A stretch of 59,631 nucleotides of DNA, from the NCBI GenBank assembly GCA_004524725.1, contig SDNW01000003.1, forward strand, positions 1 to 59,631. Reading direction: 5' to 3'. The position numbers and the translations under genes were made by a program. Positions 24,077 to 28,157 of the stretch are shown in pieces (position 1 is the first letter of the stretch; each line of letters opens with the position of its first letter). The stretch comes from Promethearchaeota archaeon. GTDB taxonomy: Archaea; Asgardarchaeota; Lokiarchaeia; Sigyniarchaeales; SOKP01. The notes below the pieces were generated by a model. It searched no databases. It saw nothing but the letters and a program-made list of their open reading frames with translations, and was not told where the DNA came from.

Positions 24077-25111
24077 GTGGTATTAAAAACAAAATTAACT
24101 TCGATGTTTGGAATTCAACATCCTATAGTTGCAGCCCCAATGGGACCATTTTATACTACAAAATTAACCGTAGCAGTGTCTGAGGCAGGAGGTTTGGGTG
24201 TTTTAAGCCATACTAATCTATTTGGTAAGAGTAGTCTTCAGGAAATGAAAGCAAATATGGAATATGTTATAGAACATACAGATAAGCCATTTGGATTTAA
24301 TATTCGTACTTCAAGACTCCAGATTGATGCTGCTACTCTGTGTAGAGCTATTCCGAAATTCATAAGTAAAAATCCAAAATTAAGAGACCAATGTATTTAT
24401 GCGGTTACCAGTGCAGGCACCCCAAAAATGTTCCAAAGTAATTCACTTCGAAGACTAAGGGAAGCGGGTTCTCAGATGAAGCACTTTCATGTTGCACCGG
24501 CACTATGGCTTTCAGATAAATGTGTAAGTGCGGGTGTAGATGGTATTGTGGTAACCGGATGGGAAGGTGGTGGTCATCAATCATATGAAAAAATAAGCAC
24601 CTTAGTATTACTTCAACAAATCAAGCAAAGGCATCCCGATATCCCATTAGTTGCTTGCGGTGGTTTTTCAAGTGGACAGGGGTTAGCTTCAGCTTTAGCA
24701 TTAGGTGCGGATGGAATTGCGATGGGATCCCGATTTATTGCGTCTAAAGAAAGTGAATTTCATGAAAAATATAAAAATGTAATCCCCCCTGCTAAAGCAA
24801 GTGATACGATCTATGTTACAGGTGTTTTAGGTCCAATTCGGTTATGGAAAAACCAATATTCACTACATCATGGTGTAGTGTCAAGTAAAGAGGAGAAATT
24901 AGAGGAAGAAACCAAATTAACTCCTGAAAAAGCATTAGAGGACCAGAAGCATTACGAAATGACATACGATGGAAATATTGAGGATGGAGCCGTGTTGCTG
25001 GGTCAGAGCATTGGAGCGATTGATTCGATTGAAAGCTGTAAGGATATCATAGATAATATTGTGAAGGATGCAGAAAAACACTTAACTGATTCTTATTCTT
25101 ATATCCAATAA
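24077..25111 (+). CDS. NAD(P)H-dependent flavin oxidoreductase (nitronate monooxygenase / FabK-like)
   Basis: GIQHPIVAAPMG, GWEGGGH and GADGIAMGSRF are classic NMO/2-nitropropane dioxygenase family motifs. GTG start. Confidence 0.8.
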   Translation: MVLKTKLTSMFGIQHPIVAAPMGPFYTTKLTVAVSEAGGLGVLSHTNLFGKSSLQEMKANMEYVIEHTDKPFGFNIRTSRLQIDAATLCRAIPKFISKNPKLRDQCIYAVTSAGTPKMFQSNSLRRLREAGSQMKHFHVAPALWLSDKCVSAGVDGIVVTGWEGGGHQSYEKISTLVLLQQIKQRHPDIPLVACGGFSSGQGLASALALGADGIAMGSRFIASKESEFHEKYKNVIPPAKASDTIYVTGVLGPIRLWKNQYSLHHGVVSSKEEKLEEETKLTPEKALEDQKHYEMTYDGNIEDGAVLLGQSIGAIDSIESCKDIIDNIVKDAEKHLTDSYSYIQ

Positions 25112-25182
25112 TAAATAATAAAAATTTATTACTTTCTTATTTTAATTATATTGTAATATTTTTAGAAATCTTAGAGAAATTT

Positions 25183-25425
25183 ATGATGAAAGCAAAAAGG
25201 AAAATAGCTTTGATTACGGAAATTTTAGATCGATATGATGAGGGAGTCTGCTTTTATTGTGGAGGTAGTTTAAATCGAGATTTTGAAGCTGATGATTATG
25301 ATGAAGGATACTCCCCAGATTGGTGTCCAAATTGCTGTAACAACATAGATCCTTATGATGATTGGGACCAAGCTTGCCTTGATGCTATTGATAAAGTGAT
25401 TCATAATGAACCATTTGAAGCATAA
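25183..25425 (+). CDS. Small acidic Cys-rich (zinc-ribbon-like) protein
   Basis: CFYCGG...CPNCC arrangement in an 80-aa D/E-rich ORF. Confidence 0.4.
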   Translation: MMKAKRKIALITEILDRYDEGVCFYCGGSLNRDFEADDYDEGYSPDWCPNCCNNIDPYDDWDQACLDAIDKVIHNEPFEA

Positions 25426-25469
25426 ATTAATATTTGTATCTCTATTAATAAATTAATTACAGTGATTTT

Positions 25470-25952
25470 ATGAATGAAAATAGAACCCAAATAAAGCCAT
25501 ATGAATATATGGAATACTTTATGCTTGATACTGCCAATTTGGTCTCCATGGGAGGTGATGGGCAGGTAAATGTTATGGCATTATTATGGAAAACAATTGG
25601 ACAATTATGGATGATCCCAACAATAACTGTTGCGGTGGCTCCGTCGCGTTATACTTTTGAACTATTAACGAAGGGTGTTCCAGAATTTACGGTAAACATT
25701 CCTTCACCTGAAACTGCAGGGTCAATTAATGTTACAGGAGCCCTTTCAGGTCGCAATACAAATAAGGTAGAACGAGCTGGTTTGGAATTAATTAAAGGAG
25801 TTAAAACTGAAGTACCTACCATTAAAGGGAGTTTATTGAGTTATGAGTGTAAAATTATTCATACATGCCAATCCGGTAAAATGGCAAGCCATCATTTATT
25901 TTTCGGTCAAATATTAACTGCGTTTGCCTCCAATGACATCGTTAAGAAATAA
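25470..25952 (+). CDS. Flavin reductase-like (FMN-binding split-barrel) domain protein
   Basis: The size (160 aa) and the pattern NVMALLW...TVAVAPSRYTFELL...EFTVNIP...GxxSGR resemble the flavin reductase/DIM6 family. Confidence 0.6.
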   Translation: MNENRTQIKPYEYMEYFMLDTANLVSMGGDGQVNVMALLWKTIGQLWMIPTITVAVAPSRYTFELLTKGVPEFTVNIPSPETAGSINVTGALSGRNTNKVERAGLELIKGVKTEVPTIKGSLLSYECKIIHTCQSGKMASHHLFFGQILTAFASNDIVKK

Positions 25953-26013
25953 GAAAAAATATATCTTCCACATTCCAAATTCTGTGGAGAAGGATTAGGT
26001 AAGAGGTAATTGA

Positions 26014-26229
26014 ATCATTAGATCGCCCCTAACGTTCATTTGTACTCAATGTGAAAATGAATTTAAATTAGATAAGATACAATATAAATGTCCAGAATGT
26101 AATGGCTTATTATGGATTAAAGCAGAGATAAGTAATTATAAACAACAGTTTTTTAAACTTAAAACAGTATCTTGCTTCTGGGATTTACATTTTACTCAGC
26201 CTAATATCAAAAAAGAATACAAGACCAGC
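26014..26229 (+). other. In-frame zinc-ribbon coding extension of the ThrC-like gene with no ATG/GTG/TTG start
   Basis: 72 sense codons continuous with the 26230 ORF encode ...FICTQCENEFKLDKIQYKCPECNGLLWI..., the N-terminal CxxC...CxxC ribbon typical of archaeal threonine synthases. An in-frame TGA lies at 26011-26013, and there is no canonical start between it and 26230. Confidence 0.6.
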
Positions 26230-27447
26230 ATGAATGAGGGAGCAACCCCTTGTAATGATTCAGAAAAAATTGGAAACTCCATTGGTTTGAAAAATCTAAT
26301 CTTTAAAAATGAAATTAAAAATCCAACCAATTCATTTAAAGACAGAGTCGGTGCATTATTAGTCTCACATGCTAGAAGTTGGCTCTATGATAAGATCATT
26401 TGTGCATCCAACGGAAACCAAGGAGCCTCTCTCGCTGCTTATTGTTCTTTGGAAGGAATGAAATGTGTTAATCTTGTTCCAAGTAAAATAGATATGGGTA
26501 AAAAAGCTCAGATGATTGCTTATAATTCTGAAATTCTTATCAAGGGTGAATTCGTTAACGAGACTATAAAATATGCTTTGGATAAAAAATATGAAGATTA
26601 TTATCAAGCAACGCCAATATACAACCCGCTTACAATAGAGGCTCAAAAAACGATAGCCTTTGAAATATGGAAGCAAAAAGGTGTACCAGATTGGATAATT
26701 ATACCTATGGGAAGCGGTGAATTGTTAGTAAGCATTTGGAAGGGTTTTTTAGAATTAAAAAATTCAGAAATAATTGAAACTCCTCCGAAGTTAGTTGGTG
26801 TACAATCTTCTTTATCTTCTCCAATTGTAAATGGTTTTTTTGATAAAAAAAAATCAGAAATAGTAAAAACAGATATCCAGAAATCTCACGCATTAGGTAT
26901 ATTAGACCAAAAACCTATGTACAAGAACCTAGCAATAAAATTTATAAAAGAAAGTAAAGGAACTATGATAGCCATCCCTGAGGATCTAATAGTATCTTCT
27001 GTCGACGAACTAGTAAGAAGTGAAGGGATTTTCGCTGAACCCTCATCCGCGCTTACTTTAGCTGCTGTTCACCAATTAAACGACCAAAATCTCTTTGATG
27101 AAAAAGATCAAATAGTATGCCTTATTACGGGTAGTGGTTTAAAAGCACCATATATTTTAGAGGCGATTTCAACTCAAACAACCACCTCGGGAAAGGGATC
27201 AATCATCATTACCAAGTTAAAGATTCTCTCTCAGATCTCCTTATCAAGTATAAAGGGAATAAGTGGTACAAAAATTAGGGATTTAATTAGTTCTATCAGT
27301 TTAGCTGCGATCTACCAACATTTATATGATTTAGAAAGTAAGGGACTAATCTATCGAAAAAAAGAAGGGAAAAACGTACTTTATTTTATATCAGATACAG
27401 GCAAAAGAATTTTAGATGCATTAGATATCCTTCTTACCTTAATCTAA
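26230..27447 (+). CDS. Threonine synthase-like fold-type II PLP enzyme fused to a C-terminal winged-helix domain (5' boundary uncertain)
   Basis: SMNEGATPC (ThrC SLGEGxTPL), the PLP-lysine motif NPTNSFKDR, SNGNQGASLAAY and ITGSGLK. The C-terminal ~80 aa (ISGTKIRDLI...IYQHLYDLESKGLIYRKKEGKNVLYFISDTGKRIL) looks like wHTH. Confidence 0.75.
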   Translation: MNEGATPCNDSEKIGNSIGLKNLIFKNEIKNPTNSFKDRVGALLVSHARSWLYDKIICASNGNQGASLAAYCSLEGMKCVNLVPSKIDMGKKAQMIAYNSEILIKGEFVNETIKYALDKKYEDYYQATPIYNPLTIEAQKTIAFEIWKQKGVPDWIIIPMGSGELLVSIWKGFLELKNSEIIETPPKLVGVQSSLSSPIVNGFFDKKKSEIVKTDIQKSHALGILDQKPMYKNLAIKFIKESKGTMIAIPEDLIVSSVDELVRSEGIFAEPSSALTLAAVHQLNDQNLFDEKDQIVCLITGSGLKAPYILEAISTQTTTSGKGSIIITKLKILSQISLSSIKGISGTKIRDLISSISLAAIYQHLYDLESKGLIYRKKEGKNVLYFISDTGKRILDALDILLTLI

Positions 27448-27539
27448 TATTTATTATAATAATATACTCAAAATGTAGAAGCATCTTTAGAAATATGGGT
27501 GGGTCAAAAAATTAATATATAAGTTGAGACTTATATATT

Positions 27540-28157
27540 TTGATAATGAGTGATTTAAAAAAAGAAAATAGTTATAACTACGAAGGAAAATCCTTTAAAG
27601 GGTATTTATTACCATCCAACCCATTAATTGTTGCATTAACTGCAGTTTTTATGGCATTAATTTATATTATAACTGCATTCTTCGCCATTCCTGTACCAGC
27701 AACTGGAGGCTATATTAATTTAGGTGATATGTTAGTAATGTTTACAGCATTATTATTTGGACCAATAGTAGGTGGATTAGCAGGGGGATTTGGTTCAATG
27801 CTAGCTGATATACTATCACCTTATTATATTTACGCTCCAGCAACACTATTAATAAAAGGAATTGAAGGCTTTCTTATTGGACTAATTTCAAATCCAAGGA
27901 ATAATAACTCAAGAGTATCCTTTCGAGATTTAATGGCAGTTATTATTGGGGGTATTATAATACCTTTAGGTTATTTTCTTTACGAAGCATTCGTTTTAAA
28001 TCTAGGAGTAGCGGTTGCATTAGTTGAAGTTCCGGGCAATTTCTTTCAGTTTGGCTTTGCGGCTATTTCTTCAATAATACTAATTACAGCTACCCGTAAA
28101 AATCTAATAACCAATTTTCCACAAGTCTTTAATAAGGTTTTTATCCTTCAGTTTTAA
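27540..28157 (+). CDS. ECF-transporter S-component-like membrane protein
   Basis: 205 aa with about 6 TM helices. YINLGDMLVMFTALLFGPIVGGLAGGFGSMLADIL is typical of ECF substrate-capture subunits. No ECF A/T genes are adjacent. Confidence 0.55.
   Translation: MIMSDLKKENSYNYEGKSFKGYLLPSNPLIVALTAVFMALIYIITAFFAIPVPATGGYINLGDMLVMFTALLFGPIVGGLAGGFGSMLADILSPYYIYAPATLLIKGIEGFLIGLISNPRNNNSRVSFRDLMAVIIGGIIIPLGYFLYEAFVLNLGVAVALVEVPGNFFQFGFAAISSIILITATRKNLITNFPQVFNKVFILQF

Follow-up and report, generated by a model that had tools for sequence, protein, structure and literature searches.

A stretch of 59,631 nt (positions 1 to 59,631) of contig SDNW01000003.1 of a Promethearchaeota archaeon belonging to the Lokiarchaeia (GenBank assembly GCA_004524725.1), the whole of which we refer to as the window, carries a gene on its forward strand (26017..27447) that joins a domain resembling threonine synthase (ThrC) to a C-terminal PadR-type winged helix-turn-helix (wHTH). 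Judging from sequence comparisons, the product of this ThrC-like/PadR gene is probably a repressor, responsive to vitamin B6 or pyridoxal 5′-phosphate (PLP), of the adjacent gene for a PF07155 membrane protein. The original prediction, made from the open reading frame (ORF) at 26230-27447, had proposed that ThrC gave rise to a regulator that senses a metabolite, which would be a fold-type II counterpart of the MocR/GabR regulators. This proposal is supported by the wHTH tail, by the loss of the Schiff-base lysine among relatives and by gene contexts that include pdxST and PF07155 genes, and further by a palindrome in the promoter of the PF07155 gene, the lack of a second thrC and the threonine pathway genes that were not found. 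What it had not foreseen is that the ligand is likely to be vitamin B6 and not a metabolite of the threonine pathway.

The protein begins with a zinc ribbon (26035..26121, forward strand like all parts of the gene), whose four cysteines (codons at 26041, 26050, 26089 and 26098) are conserved in at least 90% of 140 aligned sequences. It continues into a ThrC-type fold-type II PLP domain (residues 72-380, numbered from nt 26014; 26227..27153; Pfam PALP, 6e-63) with the Schiff-base lysine K109 (AAA, 26338-26340). A flexible linker (residues 381-393, 27154..27192) leads to the PadR-type wHTH (residues 394-477, 27193..27444), which was assigned from an AlphaFold2 model and from homology to the PadR tails of relatives, and whose recognition helix spans residues 430-442 (27301-27339). 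The model was built on the 140-sequence alignment and reached a mean predicted local distance difference test score (pLDDT) of 91.6 and a predicted template modelling score (pTM) of 0.83; a model built on 10 sequences (pLDDT 57) was discarded. The beta strands of the zinc ribbon are predicted at pLDDT 85-96, and the linker falls below 50 at residues 382-392. In the tail, helices at 394-410, 418-425 and 430-442, strands at 446-451 and 454-459 and a last helix at 461-476 are predicted at pLDDT 90-97, which gives the three helices, beta-hairpin wing and C-terminal helix expected for a PadR-like fold.

With Foldseek, the best matches of the ThrC-like domain were the threonine synthases 6nmx, 6cgq and 2zsj (E ~1e-24; target-normalised TM-score 0.82-0.85). 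The solved ThrC structures span only residues 72-385, so that their chains stop before the wHTH tail; the tail is thus neither part of the normal ThrC C-terminal domain nor disordered. Taken alone, the tail of the window protein has weak Pfam matches (PadR at E=0.012, HxlR and TrmB) and weak matches in the PDB, most of which are ArsR-type regulators or other winged-helix proteins that bind DNA. The homologous tails of ten long relatives score 31-58 bits with Pfam PadR (cut-off 27), covering profile positions 1-74 of 75, and together with the predicted fold they bear out the claim that the last ~80 residues form a wHTH. In a 10-sequence alignment of the Loki-type family, the last ~90 residues are nearly invariant, and the enzyme part has drifted to ~62% identity.

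The same architecture was found in more than 100 proteins, close homologues with 55-96% identity from genome bins named as Loki-, Hod-, Hermod-, Odin- and Thorarchaeota. Among 151 sampled Asgard genomes, the close subfamily (at least 52% identity over the full length) was seen only in the family to which the window belongs. The question of whether the fusion recurs in Asgard or other archaea can be answered positively, as a scan of one genome per species found it in 72 Asgard loci and ~60 distant archaeal relatives carry the tail as well. An exhaustive search of 1.84 billion cluster representatives returned many distant relatives at 30-42% identity; those of 440-500 aa align to about residue 470, and those of about 400-420 aa end near residue 380. 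By source name, the ten long relatives belong to Odin-, Baldr-, Bathy- and Aigarchaeota, Nitrososphaerales and Thermofilum; in NCBI they carry the label ‘threonine synthase’.

We surveyed the lysine position in an alignment of full-length matches, using the best 150 representatives clustered at 50% identity. About 65 of these have a C-terminal tail of 85-125 residues, and in the tailed proteins the lysine of NPTxSF[K]DR is swapped for R, I, L, M, V, T, F or another residue; the exceptions are the window protein, P0121 and P0125. The tail-less relatives kept the lysine in 76 of 76 cases. F108, N135, G233, G235 and T372, which we take from ThrC structures to be PLP-contact positions, are conserved in at least 90% of the 140 sequences. 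Because the tailed forms lost the lysine and kept the positions assigned to PLP contact, they would have lost catalysis but probably not PLP binding, and this combination reads as the signature of a sensor. The Loki-type subfamily is the exception to the lysine loss typical of tailed relatives, as K109 is kept in all 34 of its sequences examined, yet a FastTree phylogeny of the core domain places this clade within a group of Lys-to-Arg forms.

The names given to these proteins in public databases deserve mention. The NCBIfam model NF004170 (PRK05638, ‘threonine synthase’) aligns with the window protein over profile positions 4-441 of 442, tail included, at 293 bits against a cut-off of 421. 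Lysine-less tailed relatives such as P0124 and P0141, together with others (e.g., Odinarchaeota and Aigarchaeota entries), are named ‘threonine synthase’ by NCBI, presumably through this model, and a systematic misannotation is likely.

The gene next to the regulator (27546..28157, forward strand; Pfam PF07155, 2e-37) encodes an ECF-S-type (energy-coupling factor substrate-binding) membrane protein, which is a candidate importer of B6 vitamers and the probable regulated target. Its ORF was listed from a TTG at 27540, and the ATG at 27546 is the likelier start. PdxU and PdxU2/HmpT belong to the Pfam family PF07155. One review counts these two and P5PA, a member of a different family (PF13531), as the only transporters of B6 vitamers or PLP characterised in prokaryotes, three in all (PMC9997740). 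A PF07155 gene adjoins the regulator gene in 55 of the 55 Asgard loci with downstream DNA. The adjacency was also seen in an Aigarchaeota locus (divergent, with a gap of 53 nt), in an Asgardarchaeia locus and in one further metagenomic locus, and was absent in three other loci of distant relatives. The two genes lie tail to tail in 55 related loci and are co-directional only in the window, where inversion of the PF07155 gene left the candidate operator directly before the importer start.

This candidate operator is a conserved palindrome, ATATAAGTTnnAACTTATAT, which precedes the PF07155 gene in 52 of the 55 Asgard loci. Within the 160 nt before that gene, the consensus TATATAAGTTnnAACTTATATA was present in these 52 loci at no more than two mismatches, with 38 exact 16-mers and with two or more copies in 35. 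The copies sit 30-70 nt ahead of the PF07155 start, and 87 of the 99 matches in 490 kb of locus DNA fall in the regions searched upstream of PF07155 genes. The window follows the pattern of its relatives, with the PF07155 gene adjacent and an ATAAGyTnnArCTTAT-type palindrome in its promoter. Here the candidate operator is a perfect 10+4+10 palindrome, ATATATAAGT-TGAG-ACTTATATAT (27515..27538), which ends 8 nt before the ATG at 27546, so that its left arm lies where the TATA box of a near-leaderless transcript would be expected.

We also searched for the operator in the window's own genome (G000) and in the closed chromosomes of two relatives (G001 and G002). The exact 16-mer is unique in G001. 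G002 has a second exact copy of the core just past the 3′ end of its PF07155 gene (locus L107, G002:C1:1478273-1478288) and a third at 1997156, between unrelated genes. No wider regulon was detected, as copies with one mismatch in G000 and G002 did not exceed a reversed-pattern control and had no B6-related neighbours.

In three Asgard genomes of three families, the tailed ThrC-like gene stands beside pdxS-pdxT, on the same strand upstream in L100, divergently in L101 and upstream in L102, and the lysine position is L, I and R, respectively. L095, L097, L099, L100, L101 and L102 each have a palindrome of this class between the regulator gene and its target. The related sequences include TATAAGCTnnAGCTTA in the Aigarchaeota locus, ATATAAGCTATAGCCTATAT in L099, TTCAAGTTnnAACTTG in L097 (where the target is a transporter), TTCAAGTTAAATCTTG at pdxS in L102, TATAGGnTnnAnCCTATA at pdxS in L101 and TAGGTAACAACCTA ahead of the thrC-like-pdxS-pdxT operon in L100. 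Although their targets differ, L097 and L102 have in common both an operator variant and the recognition-helix variant IQA[VI]YQHL, which indicates that the motif travels with the regulator and not with the target.

Searches for pdxS, a gene of PLP synthesis, were negative in G000, G001, G002 and the Aigarchaeota genome. All 16 sampled carriers of the Loki-type gene likewise gave none, and one genus of the window's family has pdxS and is without the ThrC-like/PadR gene. A kinase of the PdxK/ThiD family is encoded in both G001 and G002. On its gene content, the organism appears unable to make PLP, and with no pdxS found, uptake of B6 would be the step in need of control.

From the observed architecture, conservation, lysine pattern, synteny, palindrome and pathway gaps, we infer a one-component regulator in which a zinc ribbon and a ThrC-derived, PLP-binding sensor domain are joined to a DNA-binding PadR winged helix at the C-terminus. 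The protein would act as a dimer, as is expected from the dimeric state of ThrC enzymes and from the palindromic form of the candidate operator. Its ThrC-derived domain would report the PLP/B6 status of the cell, and its PadR domains would bind the 24-bp palindrome at 27515-27538, over the expected TATA and start region of the PF07155 gene. The regulator would turn the importer gene off whenever the cell has enough PLP; in relatives that make PLP, the same kind of regulator and operator would control pdxS-pdxT. The retained K109 may serve sensing through a covalent aldimine or may leave some residual enzyme activity.

Several observations weigh against a B6-responsive repressor of the importer, and the first of these concern the ligand. 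The PF07155 protein has weak best matches in NCBIfam (RibU and FolT models), and the family, named for riboflavin S components, also includes riboflavin importers. These points would suit a regulator of the PF07155 transporter with another ligand, such as riboflavin/flavin mononucleotide or an amino compound that would be linked to bound PLP as an aldimine, in the manner of gamma-aminobutyric acid in GabR. The kept lysine permits aldimine exchange with an amine effector, and conserved neighbours upstream are flavoproteins of the nitronate monooxygenase (NMO)-like and flavin-reductase-like types. We nevertheless regard a different ligand as unlikely, because relatives with the same operator class appear to control the PLP-making pdxS-pdxT, because the sensor is a PLP-binding fold in which the assigned PLP-contact positions are conserved and because pdxS is missing precisely in carriers of the Loki-type subfamily.

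Another group of observations bears on DNA binding. The window protein scores 16 bits with PF03551 (PadR), for which the gathering cut-off is 27, a search of the Asgard loci detected no full operator in the promoter of the regulator itself, and the convergent order of regulator and importer genes in most Asgard loci is not the classic layout of a regulator and its target. One could imagine that the winged helix serves oligomerisation or binds a protein or RNA partner, and that the palindrome is the site of some other factor or the promoter of the importer. The tail is unusually invariant for a DNA-binding domain, and the palindrome, which is rich in AT, covers the place where a TATA box would be expected. 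Against these stand the facts that PadR is a DNA-binding family whose Pfam cut-off the relatives pass, that the palindrome accompanies the regulator to different targets in different phyla and that no other regulator is consistently nearby, the MntR-type neighbour of some loci having its own palindrome, which follows a metal transporter. A function of the winged helix away from DNA is thus very unlikely in our judgement.

The remaining difficulties concern the enzyme. K109 is kept in the subfamily of the window protein, unlike in most relatives, so the protein may be an active enzyme and could be the threonine synthase of the organism, with a winged helix that is only autoregulatory or of minor importance. 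The motifs cited in the original prediction are all present (MNEGATPC, NPTNSFKDR, SNGNQGASLAAY, ITGSGLK and the C-terminal wHTH-like stretch), and the PALP fold, the SFKDR lysine and ITGSGLK hold, along with the structural matches to ThrC and the alignment of K109 with the lysine of five solved ThrCs. The ThrC hallmarks claimed there are only partial. Three motifs that are invariant in the five solved ThrCs are replaced, STGNT by SNGNQ, NS..NPxR.EGQKT by PI..NPLT.EAQKT and GNAGN by GSGEL. The STGNT, NS..NPxR and GNAGN motifs, as reportedly laid out by Omi et al. in 2003, hold the ligands of the phosphate of O-phosphohomoserine, which we take to be T88, N154, S155, R160 and N188 of Thermus thermophilus ThrC. 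These changes are only suggestive, since some tail-less archaeal relatives that keep the lysine deviate at the same positions.

Profile scores and gene inventories cut both ways. The score with TIGR00260 (threonine synthase) is 158-159, just short of the equivalog cut-off of 167.1, and the orthologue in G001 passes at 174; with NF006050 the score is 203 against 303. Four PALP genes were found in G000, namely an IlvA/TdcB-like gene, cysK, trpB2 and the ThrC-like/PadR gene. The last is the only ThrC homologue in G000, G001 and G002, and the question of a second canonical thrC thus has a negative answer in these three genomes, of which that of the window is 70.7% complete. Other Asgard families typically have two genes, one for a tailed form without the lysine and another for a tail-less ThrC of ~410 aa. 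Homoserine dehydrogenase (PF00742) was not found in G000, G001 or G002 and is absent in 12 of 16 sampled carriers of the subfamily; it is present in the other four, and G067, G106 and G143 combine it with this ThrC-like gene alone. No thrB scored above the cut-off in any of 31 genomes of the family, in a search for thrB as the homoserine kinase. The neighbours are never threonine-pathway genes, the wHTH is better conserved than the enzyme part, and the clade is nested among lysine-less forms. On balance, we hold a genuine threonine synthase to be improbable and prefer a ThrC-derived regulator of B6 uptake.

The gene itself is intact and longer than had been thought. The ORF at 26230-27447 and its stop are real, and its translation is as quoted in the original prediction, which missed the N-terminal zinc ribbon encoded further upstream. 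The reading frame is open from 26014, directly after a TGA at 26011-13, and the upstream part encodes the CxxC...CxxC ribbon. No ATG, GTG or TTG occurs in frame upstream of 26230. The full coding sequence most likely starts with ATT at 26017 and ends with TAA at 27445-47, giving a protein of ~476 aa and not 405, the length to which gene callers shorten it; a Shine-Dalgarno sequence, GAGGT (26003..26007), lies 9 nt ahead of the ATT.

We aligned 60 related loci on the first cysteine codon and read the codon eight positions upstream, which is ATT in 41, ATC in 8, ATA in 3 and ATG in 5. A Shine-Dalgarno sequence of the form (A/T)GAGGT ends 9 nt before the start in 51 of the 52 loci with ATT, ATC or ATA, versus 1 of the 5 with ATG. 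This pattern suggests a conserved non-AUG start offset by a strong Shine-Dalgarno sequence, and such a start possibly keeps the abundance of the regulator low. The lack of a canonical start codon is the sole oddity that might hint at a frameshift or misassembly joining two genes, and no support for such an artefact was found. Since independent assemblies, two closed chromosomes among them, show this frame without interruption in 72 Asgard loci, the artefact is refuted and we give it practically no weight.

The design of the protein invites comparison with PdxR and other MocR/GabR-type regulators. As in those one-component regulators, a PLP-enzyme fold would here act as the sensor for a winged helix. 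PdxR regulons in Bacteria comprise pdxST, pdxK and pdxU, and Archaea are reported to have no MocR regulators (PMC5320631); a PdxR-PdxKU locus is also on record (PMC11619246). As proposed for the family described here, the regulon of PdxR is centred on B6 synthesis, salvage and PF07155-mediated uptake (PMC5320631; PMC11619246; PMC9997740). The regulator genes are often divergent from pdxST. PdxR and MocR proteins differ in having a fold-type I domain with an N-terminal GntR wHTH, whereas a fold-type II ThrC-like domain with a C-terminal PadR wHTH is found here, along with an extra N-terminal zinc ribbon and an archaeal host. MocR regulators keep the PLP lysine and sense through a covalent aldimine, and the Loki-type protein resembles them in keeping it. 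As fold type and wHTH family both differ, the ThrC-like/PadR protein is not a member of the MocR/PdxR family; the two are not homologous as whole proteins, and their likeness is one of convergent design.

Close counterparts are also the lysine-less ThrC-like/PadR proteins of Thermoproteota and other Asgard archaea (NF004170/PRK05638), which share the three domains, end-to-end alignment, operator class and kinds of neighbours. The Lokiarchaeial subfamily departs from these in keeping the lysine, in scoring below the NF004170 cut-off, in being tied to the transporter and not to pdxST, in mostly starting with ATT, ATC or ATA and in occurring in genomes without pdxS or another ThrC homologue. ThrC enzymes (EC 4.2.3.1; PDB 6cgq, 1v7c and 2zsj) have the same fold in the middle domain, the SFKDR lysine motif and TGxGLK, but the solved ones have no winged-helix tail or zinc ribbon, and here three motifs are replaced and a threonine-pathway context is missing. 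PadR and LmrR share the wHTH topology, the recognition-helix pattern Y..L..LE..GLI and palindromic operators (a candidate one in our case). PadR proteins have the wHTH at the N-terminus, with a short helix for dimerisation after it, and bind their ligands where the two subunits meet, whereas the wHTH here is C-terminal to an enzyme-derived sensor of 380 residues.

In the window, the gene order is that of an NMO/FabK-like flavoprotein, an 80-aa Cys-rich protein, a flavin-reductase-like protein, the ThrC-like/PadR gene and the PF07155 gene. The first three (24077-25952; the last of them a split-barrel protein) are conserved upstream in 39, 29 and 50 of 60 loci, respectively. Bacterial PdxR regulons often contain a split-barrel putative pyridoxine 5′-phosphate (PNP) oxidase (pdxO), and this flavoprotein cluster might conceivably contribute to the salvage of B6; the flavin-reductase-like neighbour, however, had no match to PNP oxidase in a Pfam scan at relaxed settings.

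A second palindrome, TTTACGATnnATCGTAAA, was considered as an operator of the regulator and rejected, since it tracks a ZupT/Znu-type metal transporter and an MntR/DtxR-type regulator and not the ThrC-like gene. It lies ~130 nt upstream of the ThrC-like gene in many relatives, is unique in two complete genomes and is absent from the window. We saw it at L045:3859-3876 and in ~30 other loci, sometimes doubled at a distance of 21 or 33 nt, and the genes for the metal transporter and the MntR/DtxR-type regulator are inserted between the flavin-reductase-like and ThrC-like genes. It is probably the operator of the MntR/DtxR-type regulator. A near-match in contig C90 of G000 is a chance match, as it falls inside a thioredoxin-reductase-like coding sequence.

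Some 25 Asgard loci (L023, L045, L077 and others) have in common a non-coding block of ~100 nt, from -110 to -10 of the ThrC-like gene, with an inverted repeat, TTAAnTTCTCT-N22-AGAGAAnTTAA, that overlaps the TATA-like TTAATAAT and is followed by CCAATTAATgATTAAATC. The window is without this block, as its flavin-reductase-like gene ends ~60 nt upstream. The window's genome also encodes a small ArsR-type wHTH protein without further domains (L008, G000:C110:887-1069), whose match to the tail part of NF004170 is weak (E=3.7e-4) and probably reflects generic wHTH similarity.

In conclusion, the window carries a testable trio of a putative sensor-regulator, a 24-bp candidate operator and a candidate importer, in a field where little is known of transporters compared with most other parts of B6 metabolism (PMC9997740). 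In the literature that we searched, we found no description of the ThrC-like/PadR family or of any archaeal vitamin B6 regulator. Beyond the single locus, we tend to favour the view that Archaea control their B6 supply by regulators of a ThrC fold and a PadR domain, convergent with PdxR and mislabelled ‘threonine synthase’, of which the Lokiarchaeial branch may be a ‘trigger enzyme’. In such an enzyme, covalent loading of PLP, or exchange of the aldimine with an amine effector, would set DNA binding at the importer promoter.

If this is true, a PLP-enzyme fold would have been recruited a second time, and independently, as a sensor for transcription. The ‘threonine synthase’ label on lysine-less relatives would inflate the threonine prototrophy predicted in archaeal metabolic reconstructions. 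For the Lokiarchaeia, an apparent dependence on external B6 bears on their syntrophic lifestyle and on efforts to culture them.

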